Virus genome (UHGV): UHGV-0202386
Direction: 5' to 3' (one strand)
Length of the DNA: 15,272 nt
DNA from: a virus
Shown: in pieces, positions 3,939 to 15,133 of the stretch
Layout of the letters: every line of letters starts with the position of its first letter
How positions within the stretch are numbered: the first letter of the stretch is position 1
Program-made: the position numbers and the translations under genes
The notes under the pieces: generated by a model
What the model saw: only the letters and a program-made list of their open reading frames with translations
The model's database searches: none
What the model was told of the DNA's origin: nothing

Positions 3939-4238
3939 ATGAAACTTAAATATTCTGGCTTAACTGCCAGTGGCAACACTCACCCTAAATTTACGCGCGG
4001 CGATATTTACCGCGACCAGTACGGCGGCACGGTAATGATTAAGGGCGTGGAAGAACGGCGCGTAACCTACCGCCGTGAAGGTTACGAATATGATTGCGTG
4101 ATGCCTGTTTATCAGTTCCGGCGTGATTTTTCTCTGGTACAGACCGCGCCGCATAACGTGTCCACCAGCAACGCCAGGGCACGGGCAAACATCCAGAAGC
4201 TGAAAACCATGATTAACGGATTCAGGGGTAAAAAATGA
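3939..4238 (+). CDS. Hypothetical protein (99 aa), possibly DUF4222-like
   Basis: Motif YRDQYGGTVMIKGVEERRVTYRREGYEYDCVMPVYQFRRDF reminds me of DUF4222 proteins of enterobacterial prophages (memory only). Stop overlaps the primase start. Confidence 0.5.
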   Translation: MKLKYSGLTASGNTHPKFTRGDIYRDQYGGTVMIKGVEERRVTYRREGYEYDCVMPVYQFRRDFSLVQTAPHNVSTSNARARANIQKLKTMINGFRGKK

Positions 4239-6049
4239 AACTGGCACCGAACGTAAAACAGCAGTCACGCGGCATAAAACACAAAGAAACAGAAGTCATT
4301 ATTTTTGCGGGTAGTGATGCCTGGTCACACGCAAAACAATGGCAGGAACATGACGCGCGTATGGCCGGAGATAATGAGCCTCCTGTGTGGCTTGGGGAGC
4401 AGCAGTTATCCGAACTGGATAAGCTGCAAATTGTGCCGGAAGGCAGAAAATCCGTGCGCATATTCAGGGCCGGATATCTTGCGCCAGTAATGATAAAGGC
4501 GATTGGTCAGAAGCTGGCGGCGGCAGGCGTACAGGATGCAAATTTTTATCCTGAGGGTATGCACGGTCAGGAGGTGCAGAACTGGCGCGAATATCTGGCC
4601 CGTGAGCGCCAGAATCTTTCTGATGGTCTGGTGATTCAGCTTCCTGTTAAGAAAAAAACAGAAGACAGCGCCGCACCACTGGCGCTTAACCAGATGGGAG
4701 CAAGCCAGCGCGGCGAAGTTCTCCTGGCACATTATGGCGGTGAACTGGCGATTCATGCCGACTCTGACACTGTTCACCATTACAACGGCGTTGTATGGGA
4801 GCCGATTCAGGATAAAGAGTTACAGCGTGCTATGGCGCAGATTTTCATTGATGCGGAGATCAGCTATTCGCAGAACGCCATTAAATCGGCGGTCGATACC
4901 ATGAAGTTAAGTTTGCCTGTAATGGGGAATACAGCCCGTAACCTGATTGGATTCAGTAACGGGGTATTTGATACCAGAACAGGTAATTTTCGGGAGCATA
5001 ACAAAAACGACTGGTTGTTAATTGCCAGTGAATTACCTTTCAGCCCACCAGCAGAGGGGGAAACGCTGGCAACACATGCGCCGAATTTCTGGAAGTGGTT
5101 ACGCTGCTCGGTGGCAGAGAATGACCGCAAGACGGATCGCGTGCTGGCTGCATTATTCATGGTGCTGGCGAACCGGTACGACTGGCAGTTATTCATTGAG
5201 GTAACAGGTCCAGGGGGAAGTGGTAAAAGCGTGATGGCGGAGATTTGCACTATGCTGGCGGGTAAGGCCAACACAGTATCGGCAAGCATGAAGGCGCTGG
5301 AAGATGCAAGGGAACGCGCGTTAGTGGTTGGCTTTTCGCTGATTATCATGCCGGATATGACCCGCTACGCTGGTGATGGCGCAGGAATTAAGGCCATTAC
5401 AGGCGGTGACAAGGTGGCAATCGACCCGAAGCATAAAGCCCCCTACTCAACACGCATTCAGGCGGTCGTGCTGGCGGTGAACAATAACGCCATGTCATTC
5501 AGTGACCGCAGCGGGGGGATCTCACGTCGTCGGGTGATATTCAATTTTTCGGAGGTTGTACCGGAGAACGAGCGCGACCCCATGCTGGCAGAAAAAATAG
5601 AAGGAGAGCTGGCGGTTGTGATTCGCCATCTGCTTACTCGTTTTTCTGACCAGGACGAAGCTAAACGCCTGCTGTATGAGCAGCAGAAATCAGAAGAAGC
5701 TCTGGTGATAAAACGCGAGGGCGATTCGCTGGTGGACTTCTGTGGCTATCTCATGTCGTCGGTAATGTGTGATGGTCTGTTAGTGGGTAATGCCGAAATT
5801 ATTCCGTTCAGTCCGCGCAGGTATCTTTATCACGCCTATCTGGCATATATGAGGGCACACGGATTCGGTAAACCTGTAACACTGACGCGCTTCGGTAAAG
5901 ATATGCCGGGGGCAATGGCGGAATATGGCAGGGAGTATATAAAACGGAAAACGAAGCACGGTTTGCGTTCAAATGTGACACTGACAGAGGATTCAGAAGA
6001 CTGGATGCCATCATGTGCATCGGTCACAAATGACGACAGCAAAAATTAA
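4235..6049 (+). CDS. Replication initiator: P4-alpha-like primase / SF3 helicase (Walker A GPGGSGKS)
   Basis: 604-aa ORF. Walker A in VTGPGGSGKSVMAE, Walker B-like LIIMPDM, sensor AVVLAVNNN. Followed directly by TGTTCACC iterons, as for P4 alpha and its ori. Confidence 0.8.
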   Translation: MKLAPNVKQQSRGIKHKETEVIIFAGSDAWSHAKQWQEHDARMAGDNEPPVWLGEQQLSELDKLQIVPEGRKSVRIFRAGYLAPVMIKAIGQKLAAAGVQDANFYPEGMHGQEVQNWREYLARERQNLSDGLVIQLPVKKKTEDSAAPLALNQMGASQRGEVLLAHYGGELAIHADSDTVHHYNGVVWEPIQDKELQRAMAQIFIDAEISYSQNAIKSAVDTMKLSLPVMGNTARNLIGFSNGVFDTRTGNFREHNKNDWLLIASELPFSPPAEGETLATHAPNFWKWLRCSVAENDRKTDRVLAALFMVLANRYDWQLFIEVTGPGGSGKSVMAEICTMLAGKANTVSASMKALEDARERALVVGFSLIIMPDMTRYAGDGAGIKAITGGDKVAIDPKHKAPYSTRIQAVVLAVNNNAMSFSDRSGGISRRRVIFNFSEVVPENERDPMLAEKIEGELAVVIRHLLTRFSDQDEAKRLLYEQQKSEEALVIKREGDSLVDFCGYLMSSVMCDGLLVGNAEIIPFSPRRYLYHAYLAYMRAHGFGKPVTLTRFGKDMPGAMAEYGREYIKRKTKHGLRSNVTLTEDSEDWMPSCASVTNDDSKN

Positions 6050-6062
6050 ACTTATGGAATAA

Positions 6063-6293
6063 CTGTTCACCACTGTTCACCCTGTTATAAATATCTTTTA
6101 TATCAGTACATTATAGGGTGAACAGTTATTTGTGAACTGTTCACCAAACTATTCACTGTTCACCTTTTTGATTATTTATTGAGCTTTAAGGGTGAACAGT
6201 GGTGAACAGTTGGTGAATAGTTTTTGTGAAACTGTTCACCCCTTAACGTTATGAATAAAAAGGGAAAATCTCAAAAGGTGAACAGGTGAAGGG
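6063..6293. repeat. Origin of replication: about 11 copies of the 9-mer CTGTTCACC (P4 type-I iteron TGTTCACC) in both orientations
   Basis: Plus-orientation copies at 6063, 6073, 6137, 6156, 6232; reverse-orientation GGTGAACAG at 6117, 6191, 6201, 6277, with variants at 6212 and 6285. AT-rich spacers. Lies immediately downstream of the primase. Confidence 0.8.
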
Positions 6294-6336
6294 TTAAAAT
6301 GCAAAAATTTTATTTTATTGCTGTGAGGTAAAGCCT

Positions 6337-6582
6337 GTGACAACGCAGCACGCAAAAAAACCACAATCTCACGCCCTTGATTTGACAGAACACTGGCTGA
6401 GGGTGGCGATAAAAATCATCGACCGCAACGCGGGAGAAGGGTACGCAAAAGCACATCCCGAACTGGTAAGCGCATTCATGACCACGGCAGCGGCAAACTT
6501 TGCCACACTGACAGAACGGGAGATTGCCGAAGCGGAACAGGTGACAACCATCAACGTTAAAACCGGAGAGCAGACAGCATGA
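6337..6582 (+). CDS. Hypothetical protein (81 aa), GTG start
   Basis: GAGG at 6325-6328, 8 nt before GTG 6337. Stop overlaps the ssb start (ATGA). Unknown family. Confidence 0.5.
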   Translation: MTTQHAKKPQSHALDLTEHWLRVAIKIIDRNAGEGYAKAHPELVSAFMTTAAANFATLTEREIAEAEQVTTINVKTGEQTA

Positions 6583-7004
6583 CAGCACAGATAGCGGCTT
6601 ACGGGCGGCTGGTGGCTGACCCGCAGTTAAAGACCACCAGCAAAGGGACACAAATGGCGATGGCGAGTATGGCGGTTCCCCTGCCGTGCAGCCAGGCAGA
6701 TGACGGAACGGCGACGATGTGGTTATCTGTCCTGGCGTTTGGCAGACAGGCCGACGCACTGGCAAAACACCACAAAGGCGAACTGGTGAGCGTGGCGGGT
6801 AACATGCAGGTGAGCCAGTGGACAGGCCAGAACGGGGAAACGCGGCAGGGCTGGCAGGTTATTGCAGACAGCGTAATCAGTGCGCGAACGGCGCGACCGG
6901 GCGGCAAAAAAGGTCAACAGGGCCAGGCCACTGACGCACTGAACAGGGCAAAACAACAGACAAGCCAGCACGATGACCCGTACGGGGATAACATACCGTT
7001 TTAA
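6579..7004 (+). CDS. ssb: Single-stranded DNA-binding protein (short SSB with conserved C-terminal ..D-N-IPF tip)
   Basis: OB-fold pattern (W..V.AFG..A..L.K...KG..V.V.G......W....G..R) and C-terminus DDPYGDNIPF resembling the SSB acidic tip DDDIPF. GGAGAG RBS. Confidence 0.8.
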   Translation: MTAQIAAYGRLVADPQLKTTSKGTQMAMASMAVPLPCSQADDGTATMWLSVLAFGRQADALAKHHKGELVSVAGNMQVSQWTGQNGETRQGWQVIADSVISARTARPGGKKGQQGQATDALNRAKQQTSQHDDPYGDNIPF

Positions 7005-7040
7005 TTCACAACAGCGAACAGAGTAATTACAGGGGAAGGC

Positions 7041-7571
7041 ATGACAACGCTGACCATTAACCGGAAGCCGAAAGGCATTTACGGCACGCCGCAGAAAACG
7101 ACGCAGGCGGCGCAAGAGCAGGATAAAACCACATCGGTGCATAAAGTGATACCCGGCAATCAGAACGCACAGCAGAAGCCCACAGGGGCGACACCGTGGC
7201 AGCATATGACCAAAAGGCAGCGCAAAAACCGCCGACGCGTTAACCGCCTCACTGAGATGTGGCCTGACTTATTCAGCCATAAAGCACCGAAGCCGCTTAA
7301 GGTGGGGATATTCGACGACCTGATGCAGGATATCGCCGTCAGGGGGCTGGCATTCGGGTCGGGGGTATTACGTGCGACGCTGGCATCCTATGCGCAGTCT
7401 CCGCGCTATTACCGCGCCCTGATAGCTGGTGGCGCACGTTACGACCTGAAGGGCCAGCCATGTGGGGAAGTGACACCACAGGAACAGCAGGAGGCAGAAA
7501 CACGGCTGATGGTGCTGAATGAGAAGCACAAGCGCCAGCGCCGGGCAGCAAAGGGGGATACATGCCAGTGA
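7041..7571 (+). CDS. ProQ/FinO-domain RNA-binding protein (FinO-like RNA chaperone)
   Basis: PKPLKVGIFDDLMQDIAVRG...LRATLASYAQSPRYYRALIAGGARYDLKGQPCGEVTPQEQQEA aligns by eye to the ProQ/FinO core (PLKIGIFQDL...[35 protein letters not shown]). Lys/Gln-rich N-terminal extension. RBS AGGGGAAGG. Confidence 0.8.
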   Translation: MTTLTINRKPKGIYGTPQKTTQAAQEQDKTTSVHKVIPGNQNAQQKPTGATPWQHMTKRQRKNRRRVNRLTEMWPDLFSHKAPKPLKVGIFDDLMQDIAVRGLAFGSGVLRATLASYAQSPRYYRALIAGGARYDLKGQPCGEVTPQEQQEAETRLMVLNEKHKRQRRAAKGDTCQ

Positions 7572-7810
7572 CATTTGAAGAAGTTCAGCAACATAAAAAG
7601 CTTCATGGTTTTGATGATCTGGAAACCACGACAGCAAAAAAATATCGTCGGTTGCTTTCTTCCGATGCGTTATTTTTTGTGGATCATCATGATTTTCTGC
7701 GTAGCTCACTGACCGGGGAAATTTTCGCAACCAACCGTGAGCAGGTGGAAGCGATGATCGAATATTTGTGGAAAATAAGACGCAGAATGCGGGAGCCAGT
7801 GAAACAATAA
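7562..7810 (+). CDS. Hypothetical protein (82 aa), last gene of the early/replication operon
   Basis: ATG 7562 overlaps the upstream stop; AGGGGGA RBS. Followed by a strong terminator. Confidence 0.5.
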   Translation: MPVTFEEVQQHKKLHGFDDLETTTAKKYRRLLSSDALFFVDHHDFLRSSLTGEIFATNREQVEAMIEYLWKIRRRMREPVKQ

Positions 7811-7820
7811 AGCGATAAAG

Positions 7821-7847
7821 GCCCGGATTTTTTCCGGGTCTTTTTTC
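7821..7847 (+). terminator. Rho-independent terminator ending the early/replication operon
   Basis: GCCCGGA-TTTTT-TCCGGGTC hairpin (7821-7840) followed by TTTTTT (7841-7847). Confidence 0.8.
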
Positions 7848-7864
7848 AGGTTTTGTAAATTATT

Positions 7865-7890
7865 TGTTCGTGGTTGTTCCAGGTTGTTCG
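7865..7890 (+). repeat. Three TTGTTC motifs exactly 10 bp apart, upstream of the capsid operon
   Basis: TTGTTC at 7865, 7875, 7885 (TTGTTCGTGG / TTGTTCCAGG / TTGTTCGGTG). Same motif family as the arrays at 131-240, 1555-1620 and 15001-15030. Confidence 0.6.
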
Positions 7891-7980
7891 GTGATTCTGG
7901 TTGATGTTTACATACTGATTTTTATGTATATGTTGGCGTGTGGCACTCAGACGTGAGCCGCCACAATGCCGCCTGATCCC

Positions 7981-8013
7981 CTGCGCGATGCCGGGTTGAT
8001 CTGCGAGATGCCG
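7981..8013 (+). promoter_or_regulatory. Pair of 13-bp direct repeats CTGCG(C/A)GATGCCG 20 bp apart, candidate activator sites of the late (capsid) promoter
   Basis: Copies at 7981-7993 and 8001-8013, 12 of 13 identical, 70-100 bp upstream of the capsid start. No good sigma-70 -35/-10 nearby, which fits an activator-dependent promoter. Confidence 0.35.
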
Positions 8014-8083
8014 AGAGTGTCGGGCGGCGCTCCCCCCGTGTTGGTTTCACGTCCTGAATCTTAACCAATGCGAGAAAACCTTC

Positions 8084-9229
8084 ATGAAGAAATTAATCGA
8101 ACTCCGCCAGCAAAAAACCGCCCTGAAAAACCAGATGCGATCCCTGCTGGAAAAAGCCGACAGTGAAAACCGCAGTCTAACCGATGACGAAGGCAAACAG
8201 TTTGATGAACTGCGTGCAAAAGCCGATTCCCTCGACACAGAAATTTCCCGCCTCGAGTCTGTGGCTGATGAAGAACGTAACCAGCCTGGTGTTCCCGTCG
8301 AAGATAAAATCACCAAAAATGAGCTACGCTCTTACATTCTGACCGGGGAAACCCGCAACCTGTCCGGCAGTGTTCCGGCTGATGGTGGTTATACGGTTAT
8401 CCCGGAACTGAACAGAGAAATTATGCGTCAGCTTTCTGATGAGTCGGTGATGCGTAAAATCTGTACTGTTAAAACCATTCACAGTAATGAATTTAAGCAA
8501 CTGGTTTCTGCCGGGGGTGCGGTCGTGGGACACGGCGAAGAAGGTGCGGCACGTAACCAGACGGCAACCCCAAAACTGAATGAAGTCAGTATCCGCCTGT
8601 ATCCGATCTACGCTTACCCGAAAACCACTCAGGAAATTATCGATTTTTCCGAAGTCGATATTATGGGCTGGTTATCTTCTGAAATTGGCGACACTTTCGT
8701 TGATACCGAAGAAACGGATCTGGTTTCCGGTGATGGCGAGAAAAAAGCCAAAGGTTTCCTGACTTTCCCGCGCGCTACGGATAATGACAAAACCCGTCCT
8801 TTCGGTACGCTCCAGACGAAAAAAGTGACTGGCAGTCTCAGCGCCGATATGCTGATTGACCTGAAATTTACGCTGCGCAATAAGTACCGCAAAAAAGCTG
8901 TATGGGTGATGAACTCAAATACAGCCGCCTCCGCACAAAAACTGAAAAATGCCACTGGTGATTACATCTGGCGCGATCGTTTACAGGCTGGTGATCCTGA
9001 TTCTCTGCTGGGGCTTCCGGTTGAATATCTGGAATTTATGCCGGACGGTGTGATTGCAGTCGGTGACTTTAAGCGCGGTTATTTCATCGTTGACCATAAA
9101 ACCGGTACGCGTACCCGTCCGGATTTCAGCGAGCCTGGATTCATTAACATCTATACCCAGAAATATCTGGGCGGTGGTGTGGTGGATTCGAACGCCATCA
9201 AGATTCTGGAAATTCAGGCTGGCAAGTAA
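8084..9229 (+). CDS. HK97-family major capsid protein with N-terminal coiled-coil delta/scaffold domain
   Basis: 381 aa. N-terminal about 70 aa is charged coiled-coil (ELRQQKTALKNQMRSLLEKADSENRSL..). C-terminal motifs LLGLPVEYLEFMP..GDFKRGYFIVDHKTG...YLGGGVVDSNAIKILE are typical of Phage_capsid (HK97 fold). Confidence 0.85.
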   Translation: MKKLIELRQQKTALKNQMRSLLEKADSENRSLTDDEGKQFDELRAKADSLDTEISRLESVADEERNQPGVPVEDKITKNELRSYILTGETRNLSGSVPADGGYTVIPELNREIMRQLSDESVMRKICTVKTIHSNEFKQLVSAGGAVVGHGEEGAARNQTATPKLNEVSIRLYPIYAYPKTTQEIIDFSEVDIMGWLSSEIGDTFVDTEETDLVSGDGEKKAKGFLTFPRATDNDKTRPFGTLQTKKVTGSLSADMLIDLKFTLRNKYRKKAVWVMNSNTAASAQKLKNATGDYIWRDRLQAGDPDSLLGLPVEYLEFMPDGVIAVGDFKRGYFIVDHKTGTRTRPDFSEPGFINIYTQKYLGGGVVDSNAIKILEIQAGK

Positions 9230-9278
9230 TGAGCAAAGGGGGCTTCGGCCTCCTTTTTCAGCTTTATGGAGTACACCG

Positions 9279-9839
9279 ATGAAAAACACCGATTTTGAAA
9301 TCCGTACATCTGAACTGACCGCCAGCGATAAAAAACTGGTGGGTTATGCCGTTCGCTGGAACAGCCTTTCAGAAATTATCTGGGACGAGTTTCGCGAACA
9401 GTTCACGCCGGGGGCTTTTGCTGACTATCTGGCGGCGGGTAATGATGTGCGCTGTCTGTATGAGCATGACTATACCCAACTGCTGGGGCGTACCAAATCC
9501 GGCTCACTGGTACTGACTGAGGATAACACCGGGCTACGTTTTGAACTGACACCGCCAAATACCCAGCTTGGAAAAGATGTGCTTACGCTGGTGGAACGTG
9601 GCGATATTACAGGAATGAGCTTTGGCTTTCGCGCATTATGCGAGGAGTGGAATATCGCGCAAAAACCGTATCTGCGTACTGTAACCGCCGCAGAACTCCG
9701 TGAAATCACGATAACATCGATGCCTGCTTATCCCGAATCCGGCGTGGAGATTGCCCACCGTTCGTTGTTTGCACAGTACCCTGAATTACGCCCGGCAGGA
9801 AATAATCGTCATCGCTGGGCTGAACTGGCGGGGTTGTGA
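9279..9839 (+). CDS. HK97-family prohead (maturation) protease
   Basis: MKNTDFEIR...LVGYAVRWN...FTPGAFADYL...VRCLYEHD..QLLGRTKSGSLVLTEDNTGLRFE...GKDVLTLVERGDITGMSFGF matches the Peptidase_S78/U35 prohead-protease pattern. GGAG RBS at 9268-9271. Confidence 0.85.
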   Translation: MKNTDFEIRTSELTASDKKLVGYAVRWNSLSEIIWDEFREQFTPGAFADYLAAGNDVRCLYEHDYTQLLGRTKSGSLVLTEDNTGLRFELTPPNTQLGKDVLTLVERGDITGMSFGFRALCEEWNIAQKPYLRTVTAAELREITITSMPAYPESGVEIAHRSLFAQYPELRPAGNNRHRWAELAGL

Positions 9840-9840
9840 T

Positions 9841-11055
9841 ATGTGGTGGCCTTTTAGTCGTAAAAAAAGCGATCTGCGTAACCTGTCCATTGATGATTTT
9901 CTGGCGTTGTCTGGTGTACCAAATACCGGATCCGGAGAATATGTTTCTGCCGGGACGGCTGAATCATTGCCTGCTGTGATGAACGCGGTTTCTGTCATCG
10001 CTGAGGCGGTGGCCACGATGCCGTGTTACCTGTATCTGGTACGCAATGATAAGGGCAGAGAGGCGCGGGAATGGCTGGACAGTCACCCGGTAGATATTCT
10101 GCTGAATGAGCAGCCTAATTCGTGCCTGACACCTTACCAGTTTAAACGCACAATGATGCGTCACTGCCTGCTGAACGGTAACGCCTATGCGGTTATTGAG
10201 TGGGGGCGGGACGGGCAGCCAAAATCACTTCATCCTTATGCGCCGGGGTGTGTTGTACCGGAACGCACAGGCACACACAAATACCGCTATACCATCACCG
10301 AACCCTGTACAGGAACGGTGCGCACGTATTTACAGGAAGAAGTTCTGCATCTCCGCTATGCCTCGGATGATGGCTTTCTGGGGCGTTCCCCCGTCACGAT
10401 TTGCCGTGAGGCGCTGGGGCTTGGCCTTGCTCAACAGCGCCACGGAGCCAGCATTATGAAAGATGGCATGATGGCGGCAGGGATTATCACGTCAGGTGAA
10501 TGGCTGGACGGCGTGAAAGGTAAACAGGCATTAGACGCACTGGAACGCTACAAGGGGGCGAAAAATGCCGGAAAAACGCCAATCCTTGAAGGGGGCATGG
10601 ATTACAGGCAGCTGGGGATGAGTAACCAGGATGCGGAATGGCTGGCCTCCCGTCGCTTCTCCATTGAAGACATCGCCAGGATGTTCAACGTGTCGCCGAT
10701 TTTTCTTCAGGAATACAGCAACAGCACCTACAGCAATTTCAGTGAGGCGAGCCGCGCATTTCTGACCATGACAATGCGCCCGTGGCTGGCGAACTTCGAA
10801 CAGCAAATCAAGGCCGCTTTGCTGGTGACTTCTCCCGTACCTGGTACCCGTTATCTGGTTGAGTTTGATTCAGCCGATTTACTGCGCGCCACACCCACCG
10901 AACGTTATGCCACGTATGAGAAAGGGATTAAGAGCGGGATCATGAATCCGAACGAAGCTCGCGAACGCGAGGGTATGCCGCCGCGTGAAGGTGGTGATGA
11001 GTTCAGCCAGGCATGGAAACAGACTGTGGAAATTAAAGGGAGAAAAGATGAGTGA
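9841..11055 (+). CDS. HK97-family portal protein
   Basis: 404 aa from ATG 9841, 1 nt after the protease stop. Long conserved portal-like core (NAYAVIEWGRDGQP..., SIMKDGMMAAGIITSGEWLDG..., FLTMTMRPWLANFEQQIKAALL). Position and size fit a portal. Confidence 0.8.
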   Translation: MWWPFSRKKSDLRNLSIDDFLALSGVPNTGSGEYVSAGTAESLPAVMNAVSVIAEAVATMPCYLYLVRNDKGREAREWLDSHPVDILLNEQPNSCLTPYQFKRTMMRHCLLNGNAYAVIEWGRDGQPKSLHPYAPGCVVPERTGTHKYRYTITEPCTGTVRTYLQEEVLHLRYASDDGFLGRSPVTICREALGLGLAQQRHGASIMKDGMMAAGIITSGEWLDGVKGKQALDALERYKGAKNAGKTPILEGGMDYRQLGMSNQDAEWLASRRFSIEDIARMFNVSPIFLQEYSNSTYSNFSEASRAFLTMTMRPWLANFEQQIKAALLVTSPVPGTRYLVEFDSADLLRATPTERYATYEKGIKSGIMNPNEAREREGMPPREGGDEFSQAWKQTVEIKGRKDE

Positions 11056-11350
11056 AGCCAGAATTACACCTGATGAAGTCAGGGCACATCTTCGACTTGA
11101 TGATGATTTATCCGGTGAAGGCGAACTTCTGAAAATGTATACCGATGCGGCGCTGGAAGCCTGCCAGAAGCATATCGGGAAACGTTTTGAAGACGGGCTG
11201 GAATTTACCCCGGCAATGCGTGTTGGTTGCCTGATGTACATCGCTTTCCTGTACGAGAACCGGGAAGCGGTTTCACCAGTGGAGCAGTCTGAACTGCCTA
11301 TGGCTATTTCTGCGCTCTGGTCAGTTTATCGTGATGTAGGGGTGTACTGA
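11048..11350 (+). CDS. gp6-like head-tail connector (head completion/adaptor) protein
   Basis: 100 aa. MSEARITPDEVRAHLRLDDDLSGEGELLKMYTDAALEACQKHIGKRF matches the Phage_connect_1 N-terminal pattern (..HLRID.D.D...I......AA). Start overlaps the portal stop. Confidence 0.7.
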   Translation: MSEARITPDEVRAHLRLDDDLSGEGELLKMYTDAALEACQKHIGKRFEDGLEFTPAMRVGCLMYIAFLYENREAVSPVEQSELPMAISALWSVYRDVGVY

Positions 11351-11790
11351 TGCCGTGGCAACCATTAAGGCGATGCACTGAGCCGGGCTGTAATAAGCGC
11401 GTGAAGTCCGGCAAGTGTGAAGAGCACAGGCGGGCTGTATGGCGTGCAGAGGATGCCAGACGGGGACACCGCCGCGCGCGCGGGTATTCCCGACAGTGGG
11501 ACAAATACCGCGCCCTGTACCTGAGCAAAAACCCGTTATGCGTGCGTTGTCTGGCTAAGGGGATTTATACGCCAGCTCTTGTGGTGGATCACATCATCCC
11601 CATCAATGGCGGCGGTGATGTTCTCTTCTGGCCTGAGTGGAACCACCAGGCATTGTGCCAGACGTGCCACAACCGTAAGACGACACGGGAAGATCCAGCC
11701 ACGAAAGCGAACCGTAAGGCGGGCATGTATCGCGAGCAGGAAGAACGGGCAGCACACCGTAACGACTGGATGTATGGCGATGATGACTGA
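11350..11790 (+). CDS. Phage HNH endonuclease (terminase-associated)
   Basis: Cys-rich zinc finger (CTEPGCNKRVKSGKCEEH ... CVRC ... CQTCHNRKT) with VVDHIIPINGGGD..WNHQALC HNH core. Located immediately upstream of terS/terL, as in HK97-like cos phages. ATG overlaps the upstream stop (TGATG). Confidence 0.8.
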   Translation: MPWQPLRRCTEPGCNKRVKSGKCEEHRRAVWRAEDARRGHRRARGYSRQWDKYRALYLSKNPLCVRCLAKGIYTPALVVDHIIPINGGGDVLFWPEWNHQALCQTCHNRKTTREDPATKANRKAGMYREQEERAAHRNDWMYGDDD

Positions 11791-11959
11791 ACAGGAGCAA
11801 ACCAGGCTGATACGTGGACTGATAAGGCAGCGTGACTTATGGAAGACACAGGAGACAGGGCACAAAGCCAACAGGACAGGGCGCACAAAACGCACCACAG
11901 CGAAGCGATTAACCGACCGTGACCGCGAGGCCATGGAATGTTTTCGCAATCGCTGGTGA
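11780..11959 (+). CDS. Doubtful small basic ORF (about 59 aa) overlapping the HNH stop; may instead be non-coding cos DNA
   Basis: ATG-ATG at 11780/11783, no clear RBS. Arg/Lys/Thr-rich low-complexity translation. Confidence 0.2.
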   Translation: MMTEQEQTRLIRGLIRQRDLWKTQETGHKANRTGRTKRTTAKRLTDRDREAMECFRNRW

Positions 11960-12078
11960 GGCCGTCAGAGGGGGTGGGGGTGGTTTTCAGGACGAAACCG
12001 TCCCTGCCGGACACCGACCGCCTCCTCAAATTTTTGTGCACGGGAATTTTTTTGAAAATAATTGGGCGAAAAAAGAAC
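11791..12078 (+). other. Candidate cos/packaging-recognition region between HNH and terS, containing a G-rich tract
   Basis: 288-bp gap without a convincing gene. GGGGGTGGGGGTGG at 11970-11983 followed by a CAGGACG-AAAC-CGTCCCTG hairpin. Location argument: in HK97-like phages cos lies between the HNH gene and terS. Confidence 0.3.
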
Positions 12079-12435
12079 ATGGCAAGACCACCAAAAGCCC
12101 CCGCTTACCTGGATGAAATCGCGGTCAGGCAGTGGAAGGAAAAATCGCGCCAGCTTTCCGGACGGGAAGACCTTACCCCCGCCGACTGGAGCAATCTGGA
12201 GCTGTATTGTGTTAACTACTCCATATACCGCAAAGCCGTCGAAGACCTTGCCACGCGCGGGTTCAGCATTGTTAACAGTCAGGGCAGCGAGAGCAGAAAC
12301 CCCGCCCTGAGCGCAAAGGCTGACGCTGAAAGAATAATGATCAAAATGGCTTCTTTGCTGGGTTTTGACCCGGTAAGTCGCCGCAGAAATCCACCGGAAA
12401 CAGAGGAAGAGGACGAGCTTGACCGCCTGGCATGA
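12079..12435 (+). CDS. terS: Terminase small subunit, P27 family
   Basis: MARPPKAPAYLDEIAVRQWKEK...LELYCVNYSIYRKAVEDL...GSESRNPALSAKADAERIMIKMASLLGFDPVSRRR matches the P27-family TerS pattern. The ORF-track N-terminal extension (from 11938) has no support. Confidence 0.75.
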   Translation: MARPPKAPAYLDEIAVRQWKEKSRQLSGREDLTPADWSNLELYCVNYSIYRKAVEDLATRGFSIVNSQGSESRNPALSAKADAERIMIKMASLLGFDPVSRRRNPPETEEEDELDRLA

Positions 12436-14080
12436 GTACGCAGAAGGCGTAAAAAACGGCAAAATTACGGCCTGTAAACGACTGAAACAGGCCGTTAAAC
12501 GGTATTTTTCTGACCTTGAAAACCCCCTTTACACGTTCGATCCGGAGGTCGTGGAGCGGTTTATTGCCTTTTCCAGGGTGTGTCCGCACGTAAAAGGCGC
12601 AATGCGCGGTAGCCCCATTGAGCTGGAGCCGTGGCAGCAGTTCGCCTTTGCGTGCATCCTGGGCTTTAAGGTTAAGGCCACCGGACGGCGCAAATACACC
12701 AGCGCATTCATTGAAGTGCCGCGAAAAAATGCCAAATCCACGGTCGCCGCTATCCTGGCTAACTGGTTTCTGGTTATGGAAAACGGGCAGCAGGATATTT
12801 ACACCGCCGCTGTGAGTCGTGATCAGGCGCGGATCGTGTTTGATGATGCGCGTCAGATGTGCCTTTTATCCCGACCGTTACGAAAGCGGGTAAATATTCA
12901 GGCACACAAGGTGATACACCCGAAAACCAACAGCCTGTTAAAGCCACTGGCAGCAAAAGCGGCAACCATTGAAGGTACAAACCCGAGTCTTGCCATTGTG
13001 GATGAATATCACCTGCACCCTGACAACGGGGTTTATTCCGCGCTTGAACTGGGAATGGGGGCGCGTCCGGAGGGGCTGTTATTTGCCATCACCACATCGG
13101 GGAGCAACGTTGTTTCAGCCTGTAAACAACACTATGACTATTGCTGCCAGATACTGGATGGTGAAGAGGTGAACGAATCCATGTTCGTGCTGATTTACGA
13201 GCTGGATGATGAAAGCGAGGTTGACGATCCGGCGATGTGGATAAAGGCGAATCCCAATATCGATGTTTCCGTCGATCGTGAAAAACTGGCCTCAACCATC
13301 CAGAAAGCGCGGGGTATTCCGTCGCAGTGGGTGGAAATGCTCACCAAGCGATTCAATATCTGGTGTCAGGGGGCTACGCCGTGGATGGGTAACGGTGCAT
13401 GGGCGGAGTGCGCCGGAACGTTCGCGGAGGCGGATTTATACGGTCAGGAGTGCTACGCGGGGCTGGACTTATCATCAACCAGCGATATTTCCAGCGTGTG
13501 CTATGCCTTTCCGGTCGGTAAAAAGATTATGCTGGTTTCCCGTCACTATCTGCCGGAATTTCAGCTACAGAACCCCGCCAATAAAAACCGCGCCATCTAT
13601 CGCCAGTGGGTAAAGGCGGGCTGGATACGCACAACACCGGGTGACTGCATTGATTATGACCGTATCCGTGATGACATCATGGCGGATGCAGAGAATTTCA
13701 ATATCAGGCTGGTGGGCTTCGATACATGGAACGCCACGCACCTGAGGACGCAGCTACAGGGGGCAGGATTTGAGGTGGAGCCGTTCCCGCAAACATACCT
13801 TCGTTTCAGTCCGGCGGCGAAATCGTTCGAAGTTTTTGTTAACCGGAAGGTGATTGTGCATCGTGGCGATCCGGTGCTGGCCTGGTCAATGAGTAATGTT
13901 GTGATGCAGAGTGACGCGAACGCCAATATCAAGCCGAACAAGAAAAAATCATCCAACAAGATAGACCCGAGCGTTGCGGCTCTGATGGCGTTTGGCACAT
14001 TCCAGGCAGAACATGAGGAATTTGCATTTGATATAAGCGACAGCCACAAAGAGCGGCTTGCGGCGTTTGATGGGGTATGA
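12419..14080 (+). CDS. terL: Terminase large subunit (Terminase_1-like ATPase/nuclease); apparent TTG start overlapping terS by 17 nt
   Basis: 553 aa. Size, position after terS and a conserved-looking N-terminal region (PWQQFAFACILGFKV..., DIYTAAVSRDQARIVFDDAR). No in-frame ATG until codon 62; GAGGA at 12408-12412 precedes TTG 12419. Confidence 0.85.
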   Translation: MTAWHEYAEGVKNGKITACKRLKQAVKRYFSDLENPLYTFDPEVVERFIAFSRVCPHVKGAMRGSPIELEPWQQFAFACILGFKVKATGRRKYTSAFIEVPRKNAKSTVAAILANWFLVMENGQQDIYTAAVSRDQARIVFDDARQMCLLSRPLRKRVNIQAHKVIHPKTNSLLKPLAAKAATIEGTNPSLAIVDEYHLHPDNGVYSALELGMGARPEGLLFAITTSGSNVVSACKQHYDYCCQILDGEEVNESMFVLIYELDDESEVDDPAMWIKANPNIDVSVDREKLASTIQKARGIPSQWVEMLTKRFNIWCQGATPWMGNGAWAECAGTFAEADLYGQECYAGLDLSSTSDISSVCYAFPVGKKIMLVSRHYLPEFQLQNPANKNRAIYRQWVKAGWIRTTPGDCIDYDRIRDDIMADAENFNIRLVGFDTWNATHLRTQLQGAGFEVEPFPQTYLRFSPAAKSFEVFVNRKVIVHRGDPVLAWSMSNVVMQSDANANIKPNKKKSSNKIDPSVAALMAFGTFQAEHEEFAFDISDSHKERLAAFDGV

Positions 14081-14370
14081 CGAGAATGAGCGAAACCGAA
14101 CTACTAAAAATAATCCGTCGCGTTACCGGAATCAGCCAGGAAGCAGGCAAACAGGAGGCCACGCAGCCGGACAGCGTGATAGCCGAAAATTACGCGCGTG
14201 TGGTGGCTGAGGTGATGCGCCGTGACGGTATCGAGCTTAACGGCGTGGATATACGCAATATACGCACCAGAGTTCTGGAGTTGTTGTCATATCGTCGCCG
14301 CGTGGAGATGTACCAGGAGAAAGAAAAAATTACTTACCACTGGAAGAAGCCGGAGCGGTTACGACGTTAA
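14077..14370 (+). CDS. Hypothetical protein (97 aa) translationally coupled to terL
   Basis: ATG 14077 overlaps the terL stop (ATGA). Alternative ATG at 14086. Unknown family. Confidence 0.5.
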   Translation: MTRMSETELLKIIRRVTGISQEAGKQEATQPDSVIAENYARVVAEVMRRDGIELNGVDIRNIRTRVLELLSYRRRVEMYQEKEKITYHWKKPERLRR

Positions 14371-14376
14371 CTTGTG

Positions 14377-14426
14377 GTGACATACCGTGACGGAGAGTGA
14401 CAACCAGTGACACACAGTGACAAAAA
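14377..14426 (+). repeat. Five GTGAC(A) motifs at exactly 10-bp spacing (one face of the helix)
   Basis: GTGAC starts at 14377, 14387, 14397, 14407, 14417 (GTGACATACC / GTGACGGAGA / GTGACAACCA / GTGACACACA / GTGACAAAAA). Begins 7 bp after the last stop codon. Confidence 0.7.
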
Positions 14427-14498: not shown

Positions 14499-14624
14499 CG
14501 GAGAAGATACGCACCGAAGCAGAACAATTACCGTAGGTTAAAGCGACAGTATTCACACCAGCAACCTGATTATCAATTTTCAGCCGTTCGGTGGCATCAC
14601 TGGCCCCATTTTCCTGATGGGGTT

Positions 14625-14676
14625 GCGGGTTATTTGGGGGGGATTTGCGGGTTATTTTGAATGTCTCGCGGGTTAC
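14625..14676 (+). repeat. Three direct copies of GCGGGTTA at 22-bp spacing
   Basis: Copies at 14625-14632, 14647-14654, 14669-14676, preceded by a CCCCAT/ATGGGG hairpin (14604-14622). Confidence 0.6.
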
Positions 14677-14752
14677 GCTTTGGCTAATATTCAAACGCAT
14701 CATTTTTTAACCCATTGATATTAAATAATAAAAAACACTTAGCAAGCGAAGA

Positions 14753-14777
14753 TAACCCGCTAACCCGCATAACCCGC
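14753..14777 (-). repeat. Three tandem copies of TAACCCGC (reverse complement of GCGGGTTA) at 8-9 bp spacing
   Basis: 14753-14760, 14761-14768, 14770-14777. Forms an inverted arrangement with the 14625-14676 array around a 76-bp AT-rich centre (14677-14752). Confidence 0.6.
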
Positions 14778-14785
14778 ACTGTTTT

Positions 14786-14799
14786 GTATATATATATAC
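14786..14799. repeat. 14-bp alternating palindrome GTATATATATATAC
   Basis: Read directly; immediately follows the TAACCCGC repeats. Confidence 0.6.
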
Positions 14800-15000: not shown

Positions 15001-15066
15001 CTTGTGTCTATTTGTTCCACGTTGTTTCATACAGTGCACCGAACGGTGTAGTTACTGGTGTAGTCA
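15001..15066 (+). repeat. Right-arm copy of the terminal repeat: 3 phased TTGT motifs, TTGTTCCACGTTGT, and tandem GGTGTAGTTA/GGTGTAGTCA
   Basis: TTGT at 15002, 15012, 15022. TTGTTCCACGTTGT 15013-15026 is identical to 214-227. GGTGTAGTTACTGGTGTAGTCAT 15045-15067 versus left GGTGTAGTCACTGGTGTAGTCAT 246-268. Confidence 0.6.
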
Positions 15067-15133
15067 TTTTGCGATTTTTAAAGTTATCTAAGATATTATT
15101 TGTCATTTAAATTCAATTGGTTATGAGTACTTG

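Follow-up and report, generated by a model that had tools for sequence, protein, structure and literature searches.

The window analyzed here (the whole 15,272-nucleotide stretch of the virus genome UHGV-0202386) is, judging by its genes and ends, a capsid-forming phage-inducible chromosomal island (cf-PICI) of Escherichia coli integrated within yifB/comM. The core AATAGCGGAT is present at both ends of the element, within yifB/comM, and the Pfam domains of the window include a P4-type integrase (304-1533), a 67-aa AlpA protein (PF05930; 1872-2075), DUF4222, SSB, and ProQ/FinO (7041-7571). Positions 4225-14372 share 99% identity with L001, an E. coli island located between gcd and hpt, whose RefSeq annotation adds genes for a DNA primase and then for capsid, protease, portal, connector, HNH, and the small (TerS) and large (TerL) terminase subunits. 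The cf-PICI family was described by Alqurainy et al. (10.1101/2022.09.08.507074). The gene for the HK97-type major capsid protein (8084-9229, + strand; placed from the list of open reading frames (ORFs) and the L001 annotation) is the first of a packaging operon that extends to 14370. The 273 bp (7811-8083) that separate this gene from a small ORF (7562-7810) constitute the capsid/packaging control region, a role that a first-pass annotation of the window had already proposed for most of the stretch (7865-8013). The region appears to combine a conserved sigma-70 late promoter, a phased upstream module, and a structured, apparently bistable leader RNA.

cf-PICIs make their own capsids and borrow only tails, and tail-less particles form even in the absence of a helper (10.1101/2025.02.11.637232). 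No description of the control of cf-PICI capsid production was found in the papers searched; in the cf-PICI preprints among them, the word "promoter" gave 0 hits and no leader was found described, and the literature search found neither start sites in the CP-933C/EDL933 island nor AlpA binding sites. The control region would be a testable point of control over when the satellite builds its own capsids, and it offers three separable parts, namely the upstream repeats, the core promoter, and the two-state leader, for which single-nucleotide predictions can be tested. For comparison, 94 distinct versions of the region were drawn from E. coli genomes, one Rosenbergiella genome, GenBank phage records, and IMG/VR contigs; a capsid-protein scan of genome contigs yielded a single useful locus, that of Rosenbergiella. 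Two subsets were used, comprising 43 class-A versions (for the -35 hexamer and the repeat array) and 85 capW-type versions (for the -10 hexamer).

The terminator and promoter preceding the capsid gene

The upstream (early) operon is closed by an intrinsic terminator on the + strand (7817-7846), recognized by its fold, in which the stem GGCCCGGA/TCCGGGTC (7820-7840) carries a T5 loop and is followed by a T6 tail. The fold reaches -22.6 kcal/mol (z = -4.8), equally good folds occurred in 0 of 200 shuffles, and the early-operon terminator that the first-pass annotation had placed before the region is thus a strong one. The weak Rfam matches at this site cover only the terminator parts of leader and small RNA families.

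The same annotation had seen no good sigma-70 promoter ahead of the capsid gene, a statement that does not hold. A -35 hexamer TTTACA (7907-7912) and a -10 hexamer TATGTT (7929-7934) lie on the + strand with a 16-bp spacer between them, and together they match 9 of 12 sigma-70 positions in a promoter scan. As one match of this quality is expected per kilobase by chance, conservation across relatives was examined. The -35 hexamer is TTTACA or TTTACT at a fixed position in 43/43 class-A versions. In the capW-type versions the -10 hexamer reads TATCTT (49), TATGTT (20), TATATT (7), or else a near variant; the spacer is constantly 16 bp, and the -10 ends 5 nt upstream of the first leader hairpin, P1, in all of them. 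Across the 94 versions as a set, the promoter holds its position, and nearly all have a -10 of the form TA...T. The EDL933 family carries its promoter in an equal arrangement (TTTACC-16-TATTCT). In L011, L012, and other islands, an opposite-strand gene lies directly upstream and the promoter module is nevertheless retained, which argues that the capsid operon needs and has a promoter of its own. On this comparative evidence, the conserved sigma-70 promoter would drive the capsid operon, with a transcription start predicted at 7940-7942. Three points weigh on the other side: the chance frequency of such matches, the derivation of the predicted start from promoter geometry alone, and the origin of the comparative evidence in related, non-independent islands.

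The prototype cf-PICI, EcCIEDL933, resembles the window in gene order, in its AlpA (87% identical), in the upstream module (ttttgtaaattatTTGTTCgtggTTGTTCcacgTTGTTC), and in the logic of its leader. It differs in belonging to another leader sequence family (P1 CCAG-GACG-CUGG; P3 with a U7-8 tail) and in carrying a PerC-family gene upstream, where the window has ProQ/FinO.

The phased upstream module and its candidate binding factor

Upstream of the promoter, comparison of the 94 versions revealed an invariant element, TTGTAAAT (7853-7860, + strand). Its TGTAAAT heptamer (7854-7860) lies 87 or 88 bp upstream of P1 in 84/94 versions, regardless of the intervening sequence; the remaining versions have G/ATGTAAAT, or TTGTAAAT displaced to 99 bp. 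Matches to TTGTAAATTATTYGT outside cf-PICIs were chance matches in AT-rich phage DNA. TGTAAA (7854-7859) is also an inverted copy of the -35 hexamer TTTACA (7907-7912), at 53 bp or five helical turns from center to center, and TGTAAAT is similar to TGTATAT around the -10.

Directly downstream of this element, a pattern search located a putative protein-binding array of three TTGTTC units at 10-bp phase on the + strand (7864-7869, 7874-7879, and 7884-7889), that is, at about -77 to -52 relative to the predicted start. The triplet had been noted in the first-pass annotation, with a start (7865) one base late. When TTGTTC-N4-TTGTTC-N4-TTGTTC was sought with at most 2 mismatches, the window gave six overlapping matches and 200 shuffles gave none; the six are located at the attL arm of the attachment site (203-238), on the - strand 3' of int (1569-1614), and at 7864-7889, ahead of the capsid gene, where the only perfect triplet of the window is found. 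In the class-A versions, the units are fixed at -76, -66, and -56, with the consensus TTGTTC / nnnTTC / yTGTTy, and the perfect form occurs both in the window and in the EDL933 prototype. Class-B versions carry the units xGTAC, GTTTAC, and GATTAC, and the remainder of the module is a GC hairpin with a T-run, the overall length being the same. A helically phased module held at -85 to -52 is the arrangement expected for an upstream activator or a protein filament. In a set of distant islands (L344, L349, L350, L358, L365, and L366), TTTTGTAAAT, the GC hairpin with a T-run, and TTTTTCATG..GTTAAAT are retained within the 300 bp upstream of the capsid gene, and the leader is just ~40 nt long and AT-rich; the promoter module is thus older or more widespread than the structured leader.

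Related arrays recur at a few other places. The attL arm contains TTGTTC-cagc-TTGTTC-cacg-TTGTAC-cccc-TTGTGC (203-238, + strand), the attR arm a weaker copy, TTGTGT-ctat-TTGTTC-cacg-TTGTTT (15002-15027, + strand), and the spacer just 3' of int and 5' of alpA 6-7 TTGTNC units at 10-bp phase (1556-1615, - strand). Across full-length islands, strong TTGTTC arrays are confined to three settings: att arm, int-alpA spacer, and the stretch ahead of the capsid gene. Whatever the integrase type, the att arms examined have two tandem repeats next to int, which are specific to that type, and just beyond them a constant set of TTGTTC-like phased units. The tandem repeats of the window, GGTGTAGTYAC twice per arm, are likely integrase arm-type sites; two 11-bp copies of GGTGTAGTCAC (246-268) adjoin the attL-arm array, and GGTGTAGTTAC/GGTGTAGTCAT (15045-15067) adjoin that of attR. 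In other islands the arm repeats vary with the integrase type (GGTGTATCAC, GTGCAGTCAG, TGTATAAACA, and GTGTATTGC). In addition, phased GAACAA-tacg-ACACAA-taag-ACACCA units (1829-1858; TTGTTC-like on the - strand) are found 14-43 bp upstream of the alpA start codon, where they overlap the only sigma-70-like -10 (1831-1836); EDL933-type islands conserve these units, which may serve in autoregulation.

The best candidate for the factor that reads the TTGTTC array is AlpA, the excisionase and activator of the island, given that both att arms and the int-alpA spacer carry this phased unit as well; the assignment is plausible, although its chance of being right is put at somewhat below even. In PICIs, AlpA is an activator that autoactivates PalpA and is needed for excision (PMC6092414). 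Furthermore, Alqurainy et al. found that induction and transfer of a cf-PICI are abolished by alpA mutation (10.1101/2022.09.08.507074), and reproduction of EcCIEDL933 can be driven by alpA overexpression (10.1101/2025.02.11.637232). According to PMC7498355, the sites of excisionases, or recombination directionality factors, are typically direct repeats spaced one helical turn apart. Such an arrangement is found here, with three perfect units at a 10-bp period and likewise in the att arms, and the units of the att arms stand beside the integrase arm-type sites (203-238 and 15002-15027). If AlpA binds the triplet, one protein would tie excision to capsid synthesis.

Proteins with two such roles are known. 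P2 Cox also activates the late promoter PLL of the satellite P4. The literature further states that Apl of phage 186 acts at att and at promoters (PMC7498355) and that P4 Vis is an AlpA homologue (PMC7498355, PMC6092414). The window shares with these systems the one-turn direct repeats at att and at a promoter, as well as the putative link between excision and transcription through one small winged-helix protein. It differs in its unit, TTGTTC, which is neither a cox-box nor an Apl site, in the extra invariant TGTAAAT at a set distance, and in its target, which is the satellite's own capsid operon.

Several observations count against AlpA. At least three AlpA types (47-100% identical) accompany the perfect triplet, among them types only 47-70% identical to that of the window, and L001 has a perfect triplet yet merely a degenerate array in its att arm. 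A matrix of longest shared substrings between arm and pre-capsid arrays showed no island-specific (diagonal) match. Class-B islands carry xTAC units plus the inserted hairpin instead of TTGTTC, and a TGTAAAT that does not vary hints at a factor shared by every island. Moreover, the alpA-proximal repeats overlap the candidate -10 of PalpA instead of lying upstream of it, so that their geometry is not parallel to that of the capsid promoter; as this is the sole candidate -10 there, no parallel geometry was found. Listing of the recognition helices showed only a loose correlation between AlpA subtypes and array subtypes, with recombinants such as L001, and no clean covariation of AlpA or Int type with repeat sequence emerged from the protein table, the recognition helices, or the shared substrings. 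Thus, of the first-pass proposal that one factor serves both the att-proximal arrays and the capsid promoter, the shared kind of phased unit stands and clean covariation is missing. Its broader proposal of an activator-dependent late promoter fits the triplet, which lies where an activator could bind; the promoter itself is of the conserved sigma-70 kind.

The principal rival to AlpA is that a different protein recognizes the TTGTTC/TGTAAAT module, or that the module serves as a curved or UP-like DNA element, an explanation regarded as doubtful. Suggested with similar reserve as binders are a host factor such as Fis, a response regulator of the OmpR/CpxR type (which use 10-bp direct repeats), or a different island-encoded protein. 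This reading would accommodate a TGTAAAT that is invariant and position-fixed with any AlpA type, arm and pre-capsid arrays without island-specific covariation, and the perfect triplet of L001 without a strong att-arm array. GTAAATTATTTGTTC matches 6/7 positions of the Fis consensus, GNNYRNNWNNYRNNC, and the class-B units GTAAT-N5-GTAAA (- strand) resemble a CpxR box. It has to contend with the confinement of strong arrays to the places expected of an excisionase and activator (att arms, int-alpA spacer, and late promoter), with the differing class-A and class-B units, which argue against a single host factor, and with the published dependence of the whole cycle on AlpA.

The leader RNA and its predicted conformers

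Downstream of the promoter, the predicted transcript would begin with a structured leader of ~145 nt formed by the hairpins P1, P2, and P3, and every version examined folds into these three elements 3' of the predicted start. P1, GUGGC-A-CUCA-GACG-UGAG-CC-GCCAC (7940-7964, + strand), forms the 5' end; in alignment A4 it is 100% paired, and three of its pairs (1-25, 4-22, and 10-15) show changes on both sides across families. P2 (7968-8028, + strand) is a variable domain, defined with RNAalifold, whose outer stem GCCGCCUGAU/GUCGGGCGGC includes 2 G.U pairs in the window. Compensatory changes affect 7/8 pairs of this stem, and 97.4% of its cells are paired, compared with 30-56% when the partners are slid; more than 10 unrelated sequences occupy it, every one of them self-complementary. 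The + strand folds better than the - strand in 47/54 distinct versions (p = 1e-8), a bias due to G.U pairs in the stems, such as the two in the window. A C-rich single-stranded linker, CUCCCCCC (8030-8037, + strand), follows, and all capW-type leaders have a pyrimidine-rich tract here. The last hairpin, P3, defined by folds and alignment, is UUGGUUUC(A)CGU ... GCG(A)GAAAACC (8041-8080, + strand); pairing holds in 92-96% of its cells, and several pairs change from U-A to U.G. Its 3' strand covers the ribosome-binding region and ends 3 nt before the AUG (0-5 nt across leaders).

The interior of P2 contains the pair of 13-bp repeats, CTGCG(C/A)GATGCCG, that the first-pass annotation had reported 20 bp apart and that are indeed found at 7981-7993 and 8001-8013 on the + strand. 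Each is an imperfect hairpin, CUGCG-NGA-UGCCG. The first (DNA CTGCGCGATGCCG, RNA CUGCGCGAUGCCG) constitutes the mini-hairpin P2a, recognized by sequence and homology, with the pairs C-G, UxC, G-C, C-G, and G.U and the loop CGA; the second (DNA CTGCGAGATGCCG, RNA CUGCGAGAUGCCG) constitutes P2b, recognized by sequence and alignment A2. In a relaxed search allowing 2 mismatches, the pair is within chance expectation (0.88 expected; two or more in 49/200 shuffles). It is nonetheless real, because L500, of a distant leader family, has CUGCGCGAUGCCG-N7-CUGCGAGACGCUG, the same twin motif at the same 20-nt spacing within a different outer stem.

A pair of small hairpins is the P2 interior in the commonest P2 types, and the 13-mers of the window occupy both positions. 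Homologues of P2a elsewhere read GCUGC-GCGAA-GUAGC, GCUGC-GAGAA-GUAGC, and GCUGUA-GCGAG-UACAGC, and those of P2b read CUGC-GAGAU-GCAG, CUGA-GAGAG-UCAG, and CUGCG-AGA-CGCAG; in L002 the corresponding units are CUGCGCGAAGUAGC and CUGUGAGAUGCAG. The helix homologous to P2b is 98.7% paired in alignment A2, its closing pair being CG (7), UG (7), or AU (5). In other lineages an unrelated U-rich insert replaces the P2 interior. Therefore, the 13-mers are best taken as a conserved but exchangeable RNA module rather than a promoter operator.

The role that the first-pass annotation had given them, that of DNA operator or activator sites for the late promoter, is accordingly quite improbable, even though the two copies lie 20 bp, or two helical turns, apart and keep this spacing in L500. 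Counted from the predicted start, they span +41 to +73, past the conserved promoter, and are enclosed by a hairpin with a covarying outer stem. Homologous units elsewhere are hairpins with compensatory or G.U changes at spacings of ~14-17 nt, and whole lineages substitute the U-rich insert.

Complementarity between the P3 5' strand and part of P1, namely its loop and 3' strand, allows the leader to adopt a closed or an open state. In the window, UCACGUC (8047-8053, + strand) is complementary to GACGUGA in P1 (7950-7956) and would seed the alternative long-range helix of the open conformer. Most capW leaders have AGACGUGA:UCACGUCU as the corresponding pairing, and the EDL933 family, with CCAGGACGC:GCGUCCUGG, lends independent support. 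The number of shuffles, of 2000, that reached the observed pairing length was 58 for the window, 20-32 for capW leaders, and 3 for the EDL933 family; individual tests gave 20/2000 for L002 and 3/2000 for L009. A third leader family, with at least 9 distinct members, has P1 GUGACACUCCGACGGGAGCCGUCAC and the P3 5' strand UGGUUUCCCGUCU. Relative to capW, its nucleotide 15 changes from U to G, the P1 partner, nucleotide 10, from A to C, and the bulged A of the P3 5' strand likewise to C. The long-range P1:P3 helix is always paired in alignment A4, the pair 15-137 changing from U-A (12 sequences) to G-C (7). Since nucleotide 15 cannot form both pairs at once, both conformers are apparently under selection. 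The covariation of P1 with itself and with the P3 5' strand in three leader families thus suggests a two-state switch. This dual-pairing constraint would explain why P1 and GGUUUCACGUC are invariant among islands whose capsid proteins are only ~65% identical.

Such a switch would be expected to control capsid translation. In capW leaders, forcing the open conformer in RNAfold costs between 1.9 kcal/mol (window) and 4.7 kcal/mol relative to the minimum free energy structure. The features of a structured leader are present, in that the helices of P1, P2, and P2b are compensated and the ribosome site lies in a helix that has a competing helix. In the EDL933 family, where P1 is CCAG-GACG-CUGG, P3 (GUCCUGG...CCAGGAC) is followed by U7-8 directly before the AUG, and the only Shine-Dalgarno-like AGGA is located inside the P3 stem. 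Other cf-PICIs have different leaders, where the sequence of the last hairpin's Shine-Dalgarno strand recurs in a 5' element. If the switch is real, it would add a new RNA family and a post-transcriptional checkpoint to satellite biology, and it would provide a handle for engineering cf-PICI-based delivery particles.

Some findings tell against a switch. The single-sequence fold of the leader has a z-score of just -1.4, about two independent changes in evolution account for the P1:P3 covariation, and the open conformer of the EDL933 family is 8.3 kcal/mol less stable. Some cf-PICIs with the promoter module have a short, unstructured leader; the switch is thus not universal. No leader was found in the Pasteurella phage Pmp8.

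Among known systems, attenuators and leaders that sequester the ribosome-binding site (trp-type leaders, RNA thermometers, and riboswitch platforms) offer a close comparison. They likewise have four segments with mutually exclusive 1:2/3:4 and 2:3 pairings and a last hairpin that hides the ribosome site, to which the EDL933 family adds a terminator-like U-run, and covariation backs both conformers of the cf-PICI leader. Unlike them, the cf-PICI leader has no leader peptide, known ligand or aptamer, or Rfam match, and a large, swappable P2 lies between its segments 2 and 3. Rfam returned 0 matches at the gathering threshold over the whole window and, at E <= 10, only terminator-like partial matches upstream of 7872 plus one 12-bit match.

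A joint explanation in three layers (terminator, sigma-70 promoter with its upstream module, and two-state leader) is favored by a narrow measure. The intrinsic terminator (7817-7846) would end the early operon, and the sigma-70 promoter would drive the capsid/packaging operon from a start near 7940-7942. TGTAAAT (at about -85) and the TTGTTC units, lying on one face of the helix, would most likely bind a filament-forming winged-helix protein, and binding of AlpA both at att and at the late promoter would couple excision with capsid expression. In the closed state, P1 and P3 would be formed and the ribosome site hidden, with a terminator in the EDL933 family; in the open state, the long-range P1:P3 helix would enclose P2 and leave the ribosome site free. 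A more far-reaching version, which must be regarded as speculative and unlikely as a whole, posits an undescribed class of RNA switch, specific to enterobacterial cf-PICIs, that gates capsid translation, with one AlpA filament reading both the att and the late-promoter arrays. Termination would be gated in the EDL933 family, the signal might come from a protein of the island or of the helper, from an RNA, or from the state of assembly, and the swappable P2 with its twin G-N-G-A-loop hairpins would act as the sensor module.

Remaining explanations and neighboring features

A very improbable alternative holds that the capsid operon has no separate promoter and is expressed by read-through or antitermination from an AlpA-driven early operon. 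The early and capsid genes are indeed co-oriented in the window; however, the strong terminator at 7817-7846 intervenes, the -35 and -10 are conserved at constant spacing, and islands with opposite-strand genes immediately upstream retain the promoter module. The known antiterminator, Pseudomonas AlpA, is also, by its residue numbering, much longer than the 67-aa PF05930 AlpA. It recognizes GGGACG, and its DNA-contact residues are numbered R128 to H142; on the length implied by this numbering, the two are taken to be unrelated proteins that share a name. Reading of the sequence showed GGGACG to be absent from 7907-7945, and the Pseudomonas AlpA model was set aside on account of the much longer protein and the different site and geometry. 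Like this system and the lambdoid PR'-tR' region (6S RNA, Q), the window has a promoter and a short leader before late or structural genes, and in the EDL933 family a terminator-like hairpin immediately precedes the first gene. Unlike them, the window-family P3 has no subsequent U-run, and no site of the Q-binding or AlpA-binding-element type lies between the -35 and -10 of the window.

A helper-phage late activator, which the first-pass annotation had offered as a possible switch for the capsid operon, would follow the logic of P2/P4 satellites and is highly unlikely. The late-promoter consensus of P2 Ogr and P4 Delta is a TGT-N12-ACA dyad centered near -55; matches in the window occur only at 11654 and 13111, with none near 7880-7900, and the dyad is thus absent near the promoter. 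In addition, non-lysogenic cells release packaged tail-less capsids of related cf-PICIs, and EcCIEDL933 reproduction is driven by overexpressing alpA (10.1101/2025.02.11.637232).

It is extremely unlikely that the GC-rich part at 7940-8040 is instead the DNA packaging (cohesive-end, cos) site, in which P1 would be a cosN-like palindrome and the repeats would bind the terminase small subunit. In favor of this reading, P1 is palindromic and invariant, and direct repeats are typical of cosB. Against it, the stems are strand-asymmetric, with G.U pairs and better folds on the sense strand, and the leader does not track the terminase genes (EDL933-type TerL (93%), TerS (88%), and HNH (84%) are nearer those of the window yet accompany a different P1/P3 leader family, and L189-type islands (TerL 83%) keep a window-type P1). 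LR881103.1, an induced cf-PICI, is moreover linearized between a small HNH-adjacent ORF and terS. It terminates in ...GGGGTGGGGGAGGTTTTCAGGAC, which matches 11965-11992 of the window, so the HNH-terS gap is the probable cos site. This intergenic stretch (11960-12078) contains the G-rich tract GAGGGGGTGGGGGTGGTTTTCAGGAC.

Two neighboring genes were considered, one as the regulator and one as a partner of the leader, and rejected. The 82-aa ORF at 7562-7810 has no Pfam domain, and homologues (26-100% identity) are found in most examined cf-PICIs, as a rule immediately 5' of the capsid promoter. Several islands with a perfect TTGTTC triplet lack the ORF, which is thus not required. The gene for the ProQ/FinO-domain RNA-binding protein (7041-7571) lies two genes ahead of the structured leader; most islands that share this leader do not encode such a protein, which was therefore discarded as a leader partner. 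In EDL933-type islands, a PerC-family regulator gene takes its place.

Further repeats lie toward the right end of the island. Right after the last ORF of the packaging operon, five (A)GTGACA units occur at 10-bp phase (14377-14424), and EDL933-type islands have the same array 3' of the operon (cgtgacggagagtgacaaccagtgacacaccgtgacaaa). Part of the arm repeat GGTGTAGTCAC reads GTGAC on the complementary strand, and the array could represent distal integrase arm sites or another protein array. Finally, at 14620-14790, repeats of the GCGGGTTAT type, direct at 14623-14690 and inverted as ATAACCCGC at ~14752-14780, surround an AT-rich stretch near the right end and look like iterons or an origin.

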